A stretch of 41,333 nt of DNA from contig MHPJ01000010.1 of the NCBI GenBank assembly GCA_001822065.1, positions 1-41,333 on the forward strand, given 5' to 3'. Positions 10,645 to 22,989 of this stretch are shown piece by piece; positions within the stretch are counted from its first letter, which is position 1; every line of letters starts with the position of its first letter. The position numbers and the translations under genes were made by a program. A model generated the notes under the pieces. That model made no database searches and had not been told where the DNA came from. It saw only the letters and a program-made list of their open reading frames with translations. The stretch is from Candidatus Staskawiczbacteria bacterium RIFOXYB1_FULL_37_44. Lineage in GTDB: Bacteria > Patescibacteriota > Minisyncoccia > Minisyncoccales > Staskawiczbacteraceae.

Positions 10645-12195
10645 TCAGCCCATCCCGCCGCCATCGCCGGAGTAAATGCTCCAGCGGGTCTGATCAGCGT
10701 ACTGCTCGAAGATCTTGTCGGTCGCCAGAGCCGAGCCGTCGGGACGCTTGGCGCTGATGCCAGCATCTCCCGAAAGCTGCGCTCGCAAATATCCATACTG
10801 GATATCGTCGCGCGCATCGGCGCGAATCTCAAAGCTGTAAGTATTTCCTACGGGGCTGGTGAGCAAAAGGCCGTCAAAGACAACCTGCTCGTTCACCAAC
10901 TCGCCCGCCACCGAGCCGTCGAAAATGCCGTCGCTGTTGGTGTCCCAGTGCATCACATAATTAGTGAAACTGGACAGATCACCTTGGGTAGCCGTGATAG
11001 CCACATGGGTGATGTACATCAAGCTGGTACTGGAAGCCGTGAAGGCCTCCAAAACCAAATCCGGCGTTCCCGGCTCCACAGTCTGCCAGTTTGGCGAAGC
11101 GGTCGGGATCTCTTTGACCACCAGCTCGTGATCAGCGGACTTAAACGAGAACAGAGTGGCGACGTTGGTGTAAAGCCGAATTTGCGCTCCTGTGGCTGGC
11201 GCCGTGCCATTGACCATAGTGCCCTGCAAGGGCTTACCGGTTTCCGTGTTCACTGCGTTCAGCCCCGACGTATCGAAGGCCAATTGCAGATGGTCAGAAA
11301 CTGGCACGGCAACGATGTCGCCACGCACCTCGTATCGGCCGTCAGGCATGTCTGCATCGGCAAGATTAAAACTGAGCTTGCCGTTGGACACGGTTCCGGC
11401 GCTACAAACACTCACGTCGAAAACATCGTCCCAGTTGGTATCTGCCCACAAAGAGTAAGCCGCATCATCGAGATCACCCTGTTGAGCCGTAAAGCTCATG
11501 GTCTTGGGCTGAACCAATTCGGACTGCCAAGAATAAAACTTCAGCAGGCTGACGCCTTGCTGGTCAATTTCCACAGACCCGTACTTGTCGCCAGATTCTT
11601 GGCTGACGCTCCAGGACTGCGTGTCCATGGGTTGTAAAATGGGATCCACGCCGCCGTACCTGACGTTTTCAAACGGCAGATCCACACCCCGCAAATTGAC
11701 GCCCGAGACCAACGCGATGTCCAACCCAATGTCCTCGCCGGACAAATAAGAGTTAAACTTCGCATAAACCTCGATATGGAGCCCCTTTTTGGACAGCCAC
11801 ACCGGCCTGTAGACGTCTGTGCTAATGACGTCGTAATAGTCCGGCCTCGCGGATGCGAGATTGGCCTCACAGCCATCCTTGGACTTGCCGTTCAAATCGG
11901 CCATCACCACCACTTCGGTGATGTTGTACCGCAGTTCGGCGCTTCCAAAAGCTGGCAAGAAGTCAAACCCCGTGAGCCGAGCGCGATTGCGACCGGTCTT
12001 CAGAGTCATGTCCAACAGCTCCACTTTGGAAGCGCCGGGCAGAACGCCCGAAGCCAACAATGGGATCTTGTTGTTGATCACATCGATGAACGGCATGGGC
12101 GCAGGTCTTAATGTCCCGCTCCCGCCGCCGGCCAGCATTTGCCGAGGCTCCAACGACTCAACGCGCAACTTCCGGCTCGTCAAATTCCTACGCAT
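10645..12195 (-). CDS. GC-rich putative surface/S-layer-like protein with Planctomycete-type LEPRxLL N-terminal motif and three beta-rich repeats
   Basis: SD AAGGAG before ATG 12195; MRRNLTSRKLRVESLEPRQMLAG; repeats containing MADLNG, LWADTNWD and HWDTNSD. Confidence 0.75.
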   Translation of the reverse strand: MRRNLTSRKLRVESLEPRQMLAGGGSGTLRPAPMPFIDVINNKIPLLASGVLPGASKVELLDMTLKTGRNRARLTGFDFLPAFGSAELRYNITEVVVMADLNGKSKDGCEANLASARPDYYDVISTDVYRPVWLSKKGLHIEVYAKFNSYLSGEDIGLDIALVSGVNLRGVDLPFENVRYGGVDPILQPMDTQSWSVSQESGDKYGSVEIDQQGVSLLKFYSWQSELVQPKTMSFTAQQGDLDDAAYSLWADTNWDDVFDVSVCSAGTVSNGKLSFNLADADMPDGRYEVRGDIVAVPVSDHLQLAFDTSGLNAVNTETGKPLQGTMVNGTAPATGAQIRLYTNVATLFSFKSADHELVVKEIPTASPNWQTVEPGTPDLVLEAFTASSTSLMYITHVAITATQGDLSSFTNYVMHWDTNSDGIFDGSVAGELVNEQVVFDGLLLTSPVGNTYSFEIRADARDDIQYGYLRAQLSGDAGISAKRPDGSALATDKIFEQYADQTRWSIYSGDGGGMG

Positions 12196-12258
12196 CACAG
12201 CTCTCCTTAAATCAATGAACACTTTAACAAAAAAGAGGAACCATTCCTCTCTTTATTT

Positions 12259-15295: not shown

Positions 15296-15321
15296 TCATT
15301 ATTTTAAAATTTTTAATTTTG

Positions 15322-15393
15322 TGGTCCTGGCAGGGATCGAACCTGCGACGGCCGTCTTATAAGGGCGGTGCTCTGCCACTGAGCTACAGGACC
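15322..15393 (-). tRNA. tRNA-Ile(TAT)
   Basis: GGTCCTG...CAGGACC-A; anticodon arm CCGCC-CTTATAA-GACGG (one C-A mismatch). Confidence 0.88.
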
Positions 15394-17436: not shown

Positions 17437-18735
17437 TCAGCCTCGAGTCTTATTTTTTTCTTGCTTTGCGCGAACCATGCGGAAAACTGTCCGCAAGAAA
17501 TTCTTGCATTGGACAGGTTTCATATCAAGGAAGGCTTCACCGGGATTGTGGAACTGCCCGACTGCTTTGTCGTACAACTTAGCAGCCTTCGGGCTTTTTG
17601 AAACAACTTCCACAAGACCGATATGACCGTCTGACCTGCGCGCGAAGCGCAAAGTTAGATTCTTGATGGTGACTCCCTCATCAGGATTATTTGGTGGAGC
17701 CCATTTAAACTCCTCCTCGCAAATTAAGGTGGCCATGCCGACAGCGCCTTTCAAAAACTCCCACGGCTCAAGCTCTCGGTTTTCCTTCTCGAAAATCGCC
17801 GAGAATCCGCGTTTGAGCGCGGCGCCGAGTTGTTCGGTCTTCCTTTGCCAGTTTTCCAGTTTTTCACCGGACAACTGTGGCGGCGGGATAATCCTAAGTC
17901 CGTCGCAGACTTTTCCGTCGTCAGCCTTAATCGCCGACAACAGAATTGTTGCGTTTCCGAGCTCGGCAAGTCCGTTTTTGTGGCCGGTAATTCCGGTCAC
18001 AATCAGAACTTGCTTGTCGATTCCGTTTAGTTGGCTTTCCAGTTCGAAAGTCGCCTTGTTGTCGATTCCAAGTTGGAACTTTCCGAGTTTTCCAGCCCAA
18101 GCTTCCTGTGGAATGATTTCTTCGTCGGAAGTCCGGGGTTTGGGCGGGGCAGTCACGGTAGCGAGTTTTTCTGCAGACCGTGTTTCCACGGCGTGCAATT
18201 GCTCGCCGCGCAACCTGCCCACAAGCTGCAGAATCTCGGTTTTGTCTTCGGGTTTGAGCCCAAAACCTTCTGCCGTAACTTGAAAGGTTGGCGACAGGTA
18301 TTTCTCCTGTGCCGCCCAGACAAGTATGTCCACTGCTTCTTGCTCATTTATTTCTCGTTTCATTTTGAAACGAATGTTTGCAAGGTGCGCGGCACGCCGG
18401 AGGGCAAACGCCGAATTCTCCATGAGCTTGGCGATGCCGAGCTTGAACCGCGAAATAACGTCGGCCCAGGTAAGCTCCGGAATATCCGAGGGGTTGTCGA
18501 GTCCTGCTTCGATTTTCTCGGTCTCGGCCAGAAACTCGAACACCAGCGGCAGAACGACTGCCAGCAGGTACTCGGCGTGCTCAGCAATTTTGCCGGCGGC
18601 CGCCTGCACAGCCTTGATGGCCTCCATCGCCGAGCGTTTCTTTTCGCTCGGCTCCATACGCGAGGGGTCTTTCTCAATGGCCTCGAGTAGTTCGGTGATG
18701 GACAGTTCAACCTGGGTGTCAATGGTTTTTTCCAT
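17437..18735 (-). CDS. GC-rich hypothetical cytoplasmic protein (432 aa)
   Basis: Long ORF with GC-ending codons, SD GAAGGA, own promoter and terminator; no recognised domain. Confidence 0.75.
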   Translation of the reverse strand: MEKTIDTQVELSITELLEAIEKDPSRMEPSEKKRSAMEAIKAVQAAAGKIAEHAEYLLAVVLPLVFEFLAETEKIEAGLDNPSDIPELTWADVISRFKLGIAKLMENSAFALRRAAHLANIRFKMKREINEQEAVDILVWAAQEKYLSPTFQVTAEGFGLKPEDKTEILQLVGRLRGEQLHAVETRSAEKLATVTAPPKPRTSDEEIIPQEAWAGKLGKFQLGIDNKATFELESQLNGIDKQVLIVTGITGHKNGLAELGNATILLSAIKADDGKVCDGLRIIPPPQLSGEKLENWQRKTEQLGAALKRGFSAIFEKENRELEPWEFLKGAVGMATLICEEEFKWAPPNNPDEGVTIKNLTLRFARRSDGHIGLVEVVSKSPKAAKLYDKAVGQFHNPGEAFLDMKPVQCKNFLRTVFRMVRAKQEKNKTRG

Positions 18736-18961: not shown

Positions 18962-19141
18962 ATGTTGGTACTTTCCCGAAAGAAGAACGAGAGTATTGTC
19001 ATCAATGATGACATCACAATCGTTGTCGTTGAAATCCGGGGCGACAAAGTGCGCCTTGGTATTGAAGCGCCCAAAGAAGTTCCGGTGCATCGGCGAGAGG
19101 TTTTCGACGCCATCCGTCGCAACGATGCGACGGTCAAGTAG
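18962..19141 (+). CDS. csrA: Carbon storage regulator CsrA
   Basis: MLVLSRKKNESIVI...KVRLGIEAPKEVPVHRREV; SD CAGGAGG upstream. Confidence 0.96.
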   Translation: MLVLSRKKNESIVINDDITIVVVEIRGDKVRLGIEAPKEVPVHRREVFDAIRRNDATVK

Positions 19142-19232: not shown

Positions 19233-19961
19233 ATGATTATAGATACGCATTCGCATTTAAGCTTTAAAGCATACAATACAGATAGAGATGAGGTTATAAA
19301 ACGCAATTTAGAAAATGGCGTTGTTTGTATTGATGTTGGAACTGATTATAATTCAAGTAAAAAAGCTGTTGAATTGGCAAAAAAATATGAAAATATTTAT
19401 GCGTCTGTTGGCATGCACCCCGAAGTTGTTGATGAAGAATTCGACAAAGAAAAATATATAGAATTAGCGAAGTCAAAAAAGATTGTTGCTATTGGGGAGA
19501 TCGGGCTGGATTATAAGTTTAAAAACGAAGGTCAAAAAAAACTTTTTATTGAGCAATTAGAATTAGCAAAAGAATTAAATTTGCCGGTTATTATTCACTG
19601 CCGCGCTGCTCACAATGATGTGCTGGAAATTCTTAAAAACTACAAACTATCCGGAGTTATTCACTGTTTTACAGGCAATTGGCAAGAAGCTCAAAAATAT
19701 TTGGAGTTGGGTTTTTATTTGGGAATTAACGGAATAATCGATAAATTAAATTTGGACGAAGTTATAAAAAATTGTTCGTTAGATAAAATTTTGGTTGAGA
19801 CAGATTGTCCGTATTTGACTCCGAAAGAAGAAGGAACTAAACGAAATGAGCCAATTTTTGTAAAACATGTTATTCAAAAAATTGCAGGCTTACGAGAAAT
19901 TACTTTTGACGAAGTTGCCTCTGCAACTTTTCAAAACGCAAAAAACCTATTTAGAATATAA
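19233..19961 (+). CDS. tatD: TatD family hydrolase/DNase
   Basis: IDTHSHL, GMHP, AIGEIGLDY, IIHCR, HCFTG, ETDCPYL and RNEP. Confidence 0.95.
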   Translation: MIIDTHSHLSFKAYNTDRDEVIKRNLENGVVCIDVGTDYNSSKKAVELAKKYENIYASVGMHPEVVDEEFDKEKYIELAKSKKIVAIGEIGLDYKFKNEGQKKLFIEQLELAKELNLPVIIHCRAAHNDVLEILKNYKLSGVIHCFTGNWQEAQKYLELGFYLGINGIIDKLNLDEVIKNCSLDKILVETDCPYLTPKEEGTKRNEPIFVKHVIQKIAGLREITFDEVASATFQNAKNLFRI

Positions 19962-19967
19962 AACATC

Positions 19968-19996
19968 TTGACAGTCAGGTGTGTTTTTGGTAACTT
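19968..19996 (+). promoter_or_regulatory. sigma70 promoter upstream of a structured noncoding region
   Basis: TTGACA-17nt-(TGg)TAACTT. Confidence 0.7.
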
Positions 19997-20002
19997 TAAT
20001 TT

Positions 20003-20355
20003 GATGATGCTCCTTTGATCGTGAGGAGAGGGGCCGCTGATAGTTTCCCGCTTAGGATATGGTGTCTCAGACGTGAAACTATTATGTCCCTCTCCTCGTT
20101 TTGAGGAATTTGTTCTTTGATAGCGTCCTATGCGAGAAGAAGGGTTGAAGACTTTCCGTTTTTAGCCCACGGGAATGATAGGAAGGCTCGTCGCTTTCCT
20201 TCGGTTGCCTCCGTCGCAGCCTTTCTTCTCGCTTTGTCTTATCAAACCCATCTGGGTTTGGTTATAGCCTTCGGGCAAACCCCAAAGAGAGATATTATAG
20301 TACCGCGCGGTCATTCTTGCGTATTATTTCCCCATCTCTCTGCGGGGCTTTTTTT
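20003..20355 (+). ncRNA. Candidate multi-hairpin ncRNA of about 350 nt, unknown family
   Basis: Long G-U-containing stems 20023-20034/20086-20097, 20132-20147/20217-20232 and 20286-20293/20334-20341; UUCG tetraloop at 20267-20276; U7 end. Confidence 0.65.
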
Positions 20356-20508
20356 ATAAACTTTTTGCAAAAAAATACCAAAATAAGTCTACGCCATATT
20401 ATTGCTATAGCATTGGTGCGGAGTATAGTATACTTTGTATTTAAAGTAGTTATTTGTCAAGATTTACGAAGTTAAAGATATTTGGTAAAATAAAAAATTA
20501 AAGAAAGA

Positions 20509-22989
20509 ATGAAAAGATACAGTCCAAAATTAATAGAGAAAAAATGGCAGGAGAAGTGGTATGGCTCGGGCGTTTTTAAGGCGCAGAACGGTTCTAAAAA
20601 AAGGAAATTTTATCTTTTAGTTGAGTTTCCTTATCCGTCTGGAGACGGGCTTCATGTTGGACATTGCCGAAGCTACACTGCTTTAGACGTAATTGCCAGA
20701 AAAAAAAGAATGGAGGGCAATAATGTTTTATTTCCAATTGGTTGGGACGCTTTTGGCTTGCCTACAGAAAATTATGCTATAAAAAAAGGAGTCCATCCGT
20801 CTATTGTTACGAAAAAAAACACAGATAATTTTAGACGGCAAATGAAAGAATTGGGGTTTTCTTTTGACTGGTCAAGAGAGATAAATACCACAGACCCTAA
20901 ATATTACAAATGGACGCAATGGATATTTTTAAAATTATTTGAGTCGGGATTAGCCTATAAAGATAAAATTGCAATAAATTGGTGTCCTAAGGACAAGATT
21001 GGTTTAGCAAACGAAGAAGTTATTGGCGGAAAATGCGAAAGATGTGGAACAAAAGTTGAAAAAAAAGAAAAAGAGCAGTGGATGATAAAAATTACAAAAT
21101 ATGCTGAAAGGCTGGTGAAAGACTTGGACAATGTAAATTTTTTAGAAAAAATAAAAACACAGCAGAAAGAATGGATTGGCGAGAGCCACGGAGCAATTGT
21201 AAAATTTTCTGTTGAAGGGATTGAAGAAAGTATTGAAGTTTTTACCACGAGGATGGACACGATATTTTCGGGCACATTTTTAATTTTGGCTCCCGGGCAT
21301 AATTTTATAGAAAAATATAAAAACAAAATTGAAAATATTGATGAGGTTTTAAAATATAAAGAAGAAGCAAAAAACAGCTCGGACATTGATAGGACAAATT
21401 TGGACAAAGATGTGACAGGCGTGCAGTTAAAAGGAATTGTTGCCAAAAATCCGGCAACAAACGAAGAAATGCCTGTTTGGATTGCGGATTTTGTTTTAGA
21501 GCAATATGGAACCGGAGCTGTTTTTGCCGACGCGCACGACAAGAGGGATTTTAAAATGGCAAAAAAATATGGCATTGCCTTGCGTACCTCAATTAAGCCA
21601 AACGATGAACTTTTGTGGCAAAAAGTAAAAAATTTGGAAGAATGTTTTGAAGGCGATGGGACATTGTACAATTCTAGCCAGTTTGACGGAATGTCTTCAG
21701 CAATTGCAAGACCTTTAATTATTGCATGGCTTTTGGGAAAGGGCTTGGCAAAACCAAAAACAAGCTATAAATTGCGCGATTGGGTTTTTTCGCGCCAGCA
21801 TTACTGGGGCGAACCCATTCCGCTTATTTTTTGTAGTCAGTGTGGTTGGCAACCTGTTCCTGAAAAGGATTTACCAATAGAATTGCCAAAAGTCAAAAAT
21901 TATAAACCAACAGACACGGGTGAATCGCCTTTGGCCGCAATTTCAAAATGGATAAATGTAAAATGCCCAAAATGCAAAGGCTTTGCAAAACGGGAAACCG
22001 ACACAATGCCAAACTGGGCAGGATCAAATTGGTACTACCTCGCATATGCTATGCTCGGAAATTCGAAATCCGAAGCACGAAATCCGAAACTCGACTGGAA
22101 TGAAAAAAATATAAAATACTGGATGAGTGTTGATTGGTATAATGGCGGGATGGAACACACAACTTTGCATTTGCTTTATTCGCGGTTTATTTTTAAATTT
22201 TTATGGGACATCGGGGCGGTTCCAAAACAAATTGGCGCAGAGCCTTACAAAAAAAGAACTTCACATGGAATGGTTTTAGGTGAAGGCGGAATTAAAATGT
22301 CTAAGTCAAAAGGAAATGTAATAAATCCCGATTCTGTTGTAAAACAATATGGAGCAGATACTTTGCGTGTATACGAAATGTTTATGGGGCCTTTTGAGCA
22401 AATGATTCCTTGGGACGCAAAAGGAGTGGTGGGATGCCAGAGATTTTTGGAAAAAATTTATAACCTTGCGCTAAAAATCAATCCGGCTATGAGGCGTGGC
22501 GCAAAGTCAAACAGCGAGTTGGATCCAAAATTTAAATTTTCGCTGAATAAAACAATTAAAAAAATCAGCGAAGACATAGAGGCAATGAAATTTAACACGG
22601 CAGTTTCTTCGCTGATGATTTTGGCAAATAATTTTATTGAAAATAAAGAGTTTATTGCAAAAGAAGATGTGAAGACTTTGCTGTTGCTGTTAAGCCCTTT
22701 TGCTCCGCACTTGGCTGAAGAGCTTTGGCTTGCGTCGAGTTTTAAGGGATTGTGCTGCAATCAAAAATGGCCCAAATATAATCCAAAATTTATTGAAGAA
22801 GAAAAAGTCTTGCTGATTGTGCAAATAAACGGTAAGGTTAGAGATAAAATAGAAGCTGATTTTGGAATTTCCCAAAAAGAAGCTGAAAGTTTAGCATTAA
22901 AATCTGAAAAAATAAAAGTTTTGGTTGGCGGAAACAAACCTGTAAAAATAATTTTCGTGGCAAATAAATTAATTAATATTGTAATTTAA
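20509..22989 (+). CDS. leuS: Leucine--tRNA ligase
   Basis: FPYPSGDGLHVGH, GWDAFGLPTEN, LRDWVFSRQHYWGEPIP, KMSKS and QINGKVR. Confidence 0.98.
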   Translation: MKRYSPKLIEKKWQEKWYGSGVFKAQNGSKKRKFYLLVEFPYPSGDGLHVGHCRSYTALDVIARKKRMEGNNVLFPIGWDAFGLPTENYAIKKGVHPSIVTKKNTDNFRRQMKELGFSFDWSREINTTDPKYYKWTQWIFLKLFESGLAYKDKIAINWCPKDKIGLANEEVIGGKCERCGTKVEKKEKEQWMIKITKYAERLVKDLDNVNFLEKIKTQQKEWIGESHGAIVKFSVEGIEESIEVFTTRMDTIFSGTFLILAPGHNFIEKYKNKIENIDEVLKYKEEAKNSSDIDRTNLDKDVTGVQLKGIVAKNPATNEEMPVWIADFVLEQYGTGAVFADAHDKRDFKMAKKYGIALRTSIKPNDELLWQKVKNLEECFEGDGTLYNSSQFDGMSSAIARPLIIAWLLGKGLAKPKTSYKLRDWVFSRQHYWGEPIPLIFCSQCGWQPVPEKDLPIELPKVKNYKPTDTGESPLAAISKWINVKCPKCKGFAKRETDTMPNWAGSNWYYLAYAMLGNSKSEARNPKLDWNEKNIKYWMSVDWYNGGMEHTTLHLLYSRFIFKFLWDIGAVPKQIGAEPYKKRTSHGMVLGEGGIKMSKSKGNVINPDSVVKQYGADTLRVYEMFMGPFEQMIPWDAKGVVGCQRFLEKIYNLALKINPAMRRGAKSNSELDPKFKFSLNKTIKKISEDIEAMKFNTAVSSLMILANNFIENKEFIAKEDVKTLLLLLSPFAPHLAEELWLASSFKGLCCNQKWPKYNPKFIEEEKVLLIVQINGKVRDKIEADFGISQKEAESLALKSEKIKVLVGGNKPVKIIFVANKLINIVI

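Follow-up and report, generated by a model that had tools for sequence, protein, structure and literature searches.

Typical bacterial small RNAs (sRNAs) are 50-250 nt in length, and stand-alone trans-encoded sRNA genes have a sigma-70 promoter and a Rho-independent terminator of their own. Sponge RNAs of the CsrB/RsmZ type, from genomes that encode CsrA, are structured RNAs of a few hundred nucleotides, defined by repeated GGA motifs in loops. A further group of orphan non-coding RNA (ncRNA) candidates, the GC-IGR/DIMPL motifs, comes from long GC-rich intergenic regions of AT-rich bacterial genomes, and comprises GC-richer, ORF-free intergenic elements with a conserved multi-helix fold, a narrow range and no assigned function (PMC6429828, PMC8632094, PMC11109978, PMC8723152).

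The element described here shares these features with the GC-IGR/DIMPL motifs. It matches none of 4227 Rfam families, however, many such motifs included, and it is found in two Patescibacteria species, in a variable cargo slot with no fixed neighbour gene. With stand-alone trans-encoded sRNA genes it has in common a promoter-to-terminator layout on one strand, the lack of an ORF and a lineage-specific distribution, but it is larger (~350-390 nt) and more structured (a three-way junction and two long rods) than typical sRNAs, and no target complementarity of the element was better than that of shuffled seeds. It also resembles the CsrB/RsmZ sponges, as a candidate structured RNA of a few hundred nucleotides in a CsrA-encoding genome, but lacks the repeated loop GGA motifs that define them and matches none of their Rfam models.

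The Patescibacteria, or candidate phyla radiation (CPR), are symbiotic bacteria with tiny genomes. To my knowledge, their non-coding RNAs are almost entirely unexplored, and a full-text literature search turned up no paper on RNAs of this phylum that are structured or non-coding. I propose that the element is probably a stand-alone, clade-restricted structured ncRNA gene on the + strand, and describe below its putative transcript, its conservation in a second species, and the other readings that were considered.

Genomic setting of the element

The carrier of the element, Candidatus Staskawiczbacteria bacterium RIFOXYB1_FULL_37_44 (hereafter G000), is an ultra-small groundwater bacterium with an 836 kb genome, in 26 contigs, scored 100% complete, and with an overall GC content of 0.37. 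The window, that is, the whole stretch of 41,333 nt analysed here, is contig C10. The stretch is present in 14 DNA sequencing runs, with no RNA run on record among them, and no strain variants were found over the element, as the contigs covering it show the identical strain only.

The flagged stretch sits between tatD, encoding a TatD-type DNase (19233..19961, + strand; Pfam TatD_DNase, E 3.1e-81), on its left and leuS (20509..22989, + strand; Pfam tRNA-synt_1 and the LeuRS editing domain) on its right. Its GC content is ~0.48, compared to 0.37 genome-wide. leuS has its own promoter 3' of the element (20463..20491, + strand; TTTACG-17-TAAAAT with TG), which is kept in relatives. The gene order csrA-tatD-leuS is conserved across the family, with csrA (18962-19141, + strand) located ~830 nt upstream of the element.

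Several other features of the window were recorded. csrA is GC-rich and strongly conserved (88-96% amino-acid identity in close relatives), and was found in 20 of 36 sampled genomes of the family and in 0 of 24 from the other families of the order. In the literature, CsrA in the candidate phyla radiation is mentioned in passing. The 432-aa ORF upstream of csrA (17437-18735, - strand) is GC-rich (~0.52) and has no Pfam family; homologues were found in just 2 of 60 relatives, at different loci. It was considered as a partner of the element, and dropped because the second genome that carries the element has no homologue of it. A 525-aa ORF (10645-12222, - strand) with an N-terminal 'Planctomycete extracellular' motif lies inside a 55% GC island and looks foreign against the 37% GC genome, and ARAGORN called a tRNA-Ile with anticodon TAT at 15321-15393 (- strand). 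In the leuS promoter region (20454-20491), a conserved GTCAAGATTTAC(C/G) overlaps the -35 and is followed by TGnTAAAAT or TGCTATTAT; this motif (GTCAAGATTTAC...TGnTAAAAT/TATTAT) is retained in the slots of relatives regardless of the preceding cargo.

Architecture and folding of the element

Four modules make up the predicted fold. A long rod (P1) comes first, followed by a domain with a three-way junction; next is a 35-nt block that contains a cUUCGg hairpin, and the last is a terminator rod. An earlier note, made from the letters of the window, had described tandem long helices, a tetraloop and a U7 tract, and all of these are present; every helix that it listed was confirmed at 20023-20347 by sequence reading and with a repeat finder. 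All coordinates below are on the + strand.

A promoter-like site lies at 19968..19996, just past the tatD stop, with a TTGACA, a 17-nt spacer and a TAACTT preceded by TGG (extended -10), giving a predicted start at ~20004. The promoter proposed in the earlier note is present as a sequence, but its -10 agrees with TATAAT in just 3 of 6 positions, so that the promoter scan did not list it. The -35 hexamer also corresponds to the ancestral context of the tatD stop, as tatD often ends with ...ATTTGACA... in relatives that lack the element.

The P1 rod (20023..20097) has a conserved 12-bp base, GAGGAGAGGGGC/GUCCCUCUCCUC, topped by a distal 10-bp helix and a tip that are variable. Two helices are identified within it, GAGGAGAGGG/CCCTCTCCTC (20023-32 / 20088-97) and ATAGTTTCCCG/CGTGAAACTAT (20040-50 / 20072-82). 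It is followed by the linker L1 (20098..20131), which is U-rich (UUUUGAGGAAUUUGUUCUUUGAUAG...), and by the junction domain, hereafter domain 2 (20132..20232). This domain is closed by the 16-nt helix P2, GCGAGAAGAAGGGTTG/CAGCCTTTCTTCTCGC (20132-47 / 20217-32), with 14 Watson-Crick pairs and 2 G-U pairs, enclosing the two inner hairpins P2a (20153-59 / 20169-75) and P2b (20177-87 / 20193-202). The single-sequence minimum free energy (MFE) structure has another inner helix at this position, and it is the comparison of two species that favours the 16-bp P2 with two inner hairpins.

Downstream of domain 2, the hairpin P3, CAAACCC-AUCU-GGGUUUG (20243..20260), corresponds to the GGGTTTG that the earlier note had termed switchable: this segment (20254-60) is indeed flanked on both sides by CAAACCC (20243-49 and 20276-82). 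Next is the most conserved block of the element, the 35-nt UUAUAGCCUUCGGGCAAACCCCAAAGAGAGAUAUU (20262..20296), within which the P4 cUUCGg hairpin (GCC-UUCG-GGC) is found at 20267-76. The terminator rod P5 (20280..20347) consists of CCCC/GGGG, a 2x2 loop, then AGAGAGAU/AUCUCUCU, and a distal part that is variable; the repeat finder and sequence reading give the helix AAACCCCAAAGAGAGAT/ATCTCTCTGCGGGGCTT here (20277-93 / 20334-50). A U7 tract (20349..20355) marks the predicted 3' end. The G000 element also contains a five-codon ORF, AUG-AUG-CUC-CUU-UGA (MMLL), in AUGAUGCUCCUUUGA at its predicted start, a T-box-like 8-mer, GUACCGCG, and alternative pairings that adjoin the base of the terminator (sequence reading).

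The + strand of 20000-20356 folds with an MFE of -140 kcal/mol (z -6.81), and 0 of 100 dinucleotide shuffles were as good. Each of the modules is significant when folded singly (P1, z -5.59; domain 2, z -5.19; P5, z -4.39). The - strand of the same region also folds, with an MFE of -110.2 (z -4.03).

A homologue in a second genus

A BLAST search of the 78 other genomes of the family revealed one true homologue of the element, in a genome of a different GTDB genus (G062); it was not found in the other 77. The 17 other 'matches' (E up to 0.1) are fragments of 17-40 nt, and a reverse BLAST with the G062 element retrieved G000 only. The flanking tatD and leuS DNA is 79-80% identical between the two species, and the N-terminus of LeuS is 83% identical. 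The G062 element starts at the tatD stop, exactly as in G000, in the same orientation to tatD; downstream of it come a gene with a PaaX_M domain, one more ORF and finally leuS. csrA is found at the end of a separate contig in G062, so both carriers of the element possess it.

The element is ~350 nt long in G000 and ~390 nt in G062. Common to both are the promoter-like site, the base of P1, the U-rich linker, the junction domain, the 35-nt block, the base of the last rod and the U-run. The G062 promoter-like site is TTGACA-17-TAACAT with TG (10/12 matches), which gives the shared form TTGACA-17-TGnTAACwT; the -10 TGnTAACwT is kept at 17 nt in both species though the spacer has diverged. In P1, 10 of the 12 base pairs of the base are identical, its 5' strand is identical at all 12 nt, and in G062 this rod runs straight into U6. 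The linker L1 is partly conserved (21 of its 33 first columns are identical to G062 in alignment A2), and the 35-nt block is near-invariant (33/35 identical, BLAST E 4.7e-9). A U6 is present at the position corresponding to the U7 of G000, and was called a terminator by the scan.

A covariance model of the linker and domain 2, built from G000 alone (R1), finds G062 with 35.3 bits (E 4e-7). When the two sequences are aligned in this way, standard pairs fill 62 of 63 pair cells, and both sides have changed in 10 of 33 pairs, compared to 50-62% paired and 0-4 double changes in slid controls; with two sequences, and an alignment fitted to the model, this comparison is supportive rather than statistical, and some of the double changes go back to a register slip, where a G-C pair has been inserted into a purine-rich helix. 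The inner helix of P5 shows a single double change, from U-A to C-G, and pairing is lost at one end pair. The distal halves of P1 and P5 have no shared sequence between the species, and the distal part of P5 is 45 nt longer in G062, yet both are still helical (z -1.5 to -2.3 when folded alone). The homologue conserves the fold.

Other features of the G000 element are missing from G062. The P3 CAAACCC/GGGUUUG segment is deleted, so that the switch of the earlier note is present in one species and not conserved in the other, and the MMLL mini-ORF and the GUACCGCG 8-mer are both absent. The earlier note had also taken a G-U bias on the + strand as a mark of selection at the RNA level. This bias holds in G000, with 13 G-U pairs on the + strand compared to 5 on the other, but is reversed in G062 (7 compared to 12). 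Because they are not conserved in G062, the GGGUUUG switch, the loop GGAs (see below), the G-U strand bias, the MMLL ORF and the T-box-like 8-mer are probably incidental, as judged from this pairwise comparison. A pairing of the 5' leader with the linker, and a TAGCGT (ssoA CS-6-like) hexamer, were likewise dropped, as G062 has neither.

The whole G062 element also folds well on the + strand (MFE -141.4, z -4.61), and slightly better on the - strand (-149). Promoter-like and terminator-like sites are found on the + strand only in both species, and the cUUCGg loop is canonical on that strand only. The assignment to the + strand is based on these sites, on the U-runs and on the UUCG loop, the G-U bias not being conserved. 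For a putative promoter and terminator of its own, consensus matches lie on the + strand in both species, but the -35 coincides with the ancestral tatD stop context and the G000 -10 is weak.

No conserved reading frame was found, as the longest ORFs, on either strand, differ in length between the species and read the 35-nt block in different frames; the 80-aa ORF of the element has no Pfam match. This agrees with the earlier description of the stretch as non-coding and unannotated.

Two further observations were made in G062. Its tatD (L110 118-150) contains an in-frame AAATCCC-type short tandem repeat, giving a loop of 7 additional residues relative to the G000 TatD. In its leuS 5' UTR (L110 ~2300-2345), the stretch from the promoter to the start codon includes a long palindrome that is nearly perfect, AGCAAGGCCCGTCCTTGCAAAGC/GCTTTGCAAGGACGGGCCTTGCT.

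Comparison with known RNA families

With Rfam at gathering thresholds, only seven tRNAs were found in the window, and the element is unmatched among 4227 families. A permissive search of 19900-20520 gave four chance-level matches, all with E >= 0.54. The models for RNase P RNA, tmRNA, SRP RNA and 6S RNA have no match in the window; the RNase P RNA and tmRNA of this genome are encoded elsewhere, at C15:11288-11590 and C26:41408-41759, respectively. The T-box model (RF00230) found nothing in 19900-20520 at E up to 10, and nothing genome-wide. The earlier note had seen no consensus of RNase P, tmRNA, SRP or T-box in the element, which these searches bear out.

A housekeeping RNA can be discarded, given the lack of an Rfam match and the fact that BLAST detects the element in just 1 of the 78 remaining family genomes. 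A replacement of the SRP RNA was also considered and discarded, as the small SRP RNA is undetected in all 79 genomes of the family and the gap is not specific to the carriers. A riboswitch was rejected on the grounds that there is no fixed class of downstream gene, namely leuS in G000 and the PaaX_M-domain gene in G062.

No extended complementarity to the element was found elsewhere in the genome. Duplex scans of the two conserved single-stranded parts over 1121 start regions gave -27.0 for the linker L1 (shuffled seeds, -23.1 to -34.8) and -27.8 for the conserved block (shuffled, -22.7 to -29.0), in both cases no better than the shuffled sequences.

As a separate observation, SRP RNA (with the small and large bacterial models) and 6S RNA were undetected in G000. 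The small SRP RNA was found in 0 of 79 genomes of the family, though it was detected in control genomes; either the SRP RNA of this family is too divergent for the model, or the first pass of the search misses it.

Distribution and the tatD-leuS slot

Further searches detected no carrier beyond G062. A BLAST of the element against 60 relatives gave 0/60, and a 24-mer of the conserved block, with <=3 mismatches, was found in 0 of 400 genomes of the order. A 20-mer searched among species-representative genomes retrieved G062, one chance match and nothing else, while an 18-mer searched in metagenome contigs gave 37 loci, of which two are real and both identical to G062. The 15 loci retrieved from viral contigs with a 17-mer are all seed-only chance matches, and BLAST against phages and plasmids gave nothing meaningful. 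In its own genome the element is single-copy, with no paralogue or repeat family. Whole-genome searches with the R1 model missed the known positive G062 both times and are uninformative; on fetched loci the model finds G062, and the element in 0 of 29 slots of relatives.

I then compared the slot itself (19962-20508) with loci L013-L034 of relatives. The element is found in 0 of 22 tatD-leuS slots of relatives for which both tatD and leuS are in the fetched locus; in seven further loci tatD is outside the fetched stretch, and these are excluded from the slot count. In 10 genomes of the same genus, the gap between tatD and leuS is 86-121 nt, and consists of a simple terminator hairpin and the conserved leuS promoter. 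In four genomes of other families it is 5-61 nt. In 8 of 18 same-genus genomes the gap is 502-1194 nt, and holds unrelated, mostly GC-richer cargo, mostly on the opposite strand, including stand-alone receiver domains (L015, L034), small membrane or secreted proteins and a PaaX_M regulator (L020, found in L110 of G062 as well). Given this variable gap across relatives, the element is one alternative cargo of a plastic slot. Since it is one of several such cargoes, it is, on the evidence of its genomic distribution, an accessory gene and not a housekeeping one.

A model for the element and its alternatives

In the reading that I consider the most probable, the element would be transcribed from its own sigma-70-type promoter just past the tatD stop, and would end where the base of its last rod, together with the U-run, forms an intrinsic terminator. 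The conserved 35-nt block and the junction domain would constitute the functional core, with the tips of the rods free to vary provided that they stay helical. Such an RNA may act in trans, as a stable molecule whose block and junction would be recognised by a protein or another RNA. It would not be expected to regulate a neighbouring gene; the downstream genes differ (leuS in G000, PaaX-like in G062), and each has its own promoter.

The main rivals to a separate RNA gene are a structured 3' UTR of tatD and a DNA-level relic. In the former, read-through from tatD would produce a compound terminator-insulator, with P1 and P5, each plus its U-run, terminating or stabilising the transcript in tandem. 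On its own, P1 with the U4-U6 behind it could already end tatD transcripts, and in G062 a U6 directly follows P1; where the element is absent, relatives carry just one GC-rich terminator hairpin at exactly this position, and the -35 hexamer belongs to the ancestral tatD stop context. However, a hairpin of ~30 nt suffices in most relatives, and a terminator needs neither a conserved three-way junction nor a near-invariant 35-nt block; nor would it account for TGnTAACwT being kept at 17 nt in both species despite a diverged spacer. I therefore regard a tatD 3' UTR as unlikely. In the other rival, the element would be palindromic DNA left by cargo turnover at an insertion hot spot and not selected as RNA. 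In its favour, the slot is variable and 8 of 18 genomes of the genus have unrelated inserts in it, both strands fold well (the - strand better in G062), and other strongly palindromic intergenic regions are found in G000. Against such a relic, the element is single-copy without a paralogue or repeat family, it has no terminal inverted repeats, its orientation to tatD is kept, and its branched fold, which includes nested hairpins and a cUUCGg loop, is kept in both species through compensatory changes. This makes a relic a rather improbable explanation.

Two regulatory readings are also opposed by the comparison with G062. The earlier note had suggested a CsrA sponge, whose GGA motifs would titrate the CsrA encoded ~830 nt upstream. 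csrA is near the element in G000 and present in both carriers, and three A(N)GGA motifs are found in the G000 element. The GGA triplets are not enriched, however, with 5 in 352 nt in G000 (3.8 +/- 1.7 in shuffles, P 0.32) and 4 in 388 nt in G062 (4.0 +/- 1.8, P 0.59), and 8 of these 9 are predicted to be paired (4/5 and 4/4, respectively). Those in apical or linker positions are lost in G062, and for the triplets at 20055, 20105 and 20181 that species has no corresponding GGA. None of the Rfam models of CsrB/RsmX/Y/Z type matches. Of 25 same-genus genomes, 12 carry csrA, and nine of these, with a resolved slot, are without the element. The suggestion of a sponge is not supported, and is very unlikely to be correct. 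As for a cis-regulatory leader of leuS, whether T-box-like, a leader-peptide attenuator or a riboswitch, it would fit the position of an element upstream of leuS that ends in a terminator, the T-box-core-like GUACCGCG, the AUGAUGCUCCUUUGA mini-ORF (MMLL) at the predicted start and the alternative pairings beside the terminator base. But G062 lacks the 8-mer as well as the mini-ORF and the switch hairpin, the T-box model is silent both here (E up to 10) and genome-wide, and leuS has its own conserved promoter 3' of the terminator. The tatD-leuS gap of 86-121 nt in 10 same-genus relatives also leaves no room for such a leader. In G062, two other genes stand between the element and leuS; on this gene order, which refutes it, the leader reading is rejected, and I attach almost no probability to it.

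Returning to the stand-alone RNA gene, such an element would mean that 350 nt of an 836-kb genome are devoted to a folded RNA whose core is under purifying selection. Taken alone, it is one more orphan RNA in two species, and its value would rise if similar units of the phylum share a function. An RNA cargo that can be swapped suggests that RNA genes belong to the accessory gene pool of symbiotic Patescibacteria. One may speculate further, with low confidence, that these bacteria possess an extensive, heterogeneous layer of accessory RNA genes, so far undescribed, to which the element belongs; such genes would be clade-restricted and GC-rich, run from promoter to terminator over ~300-450 nt, and occupy the same variable slots as small accessory protein genes. 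If true, this layer could serve strain-level roles, such as phage defence or host interaction, and not housekeeping.

Other folded intergenic regions of G000

The intergenic regions of G000 were ranked by folding, using 70 windows from the 19 most GC-rich regions. Further GC-richer, strongly folding stretches (z -4.9 to -13.3) were identified at C15:37649-38027, C26:36494-36805, C11:2670-2940, C16:4658-4968, C9:4878-5057 and C17:6681-6835. The C15, C26, C11 and C16 stretches have no Rfam match at gathering thresholds (among 18 stretches scanned). Those of C9 and C17 fold equally on both strands, and are probably DNA palindromes. In the C11 stretch, a TTGACA-17-TATACT is followed by a terminator ~110 nt downstream.
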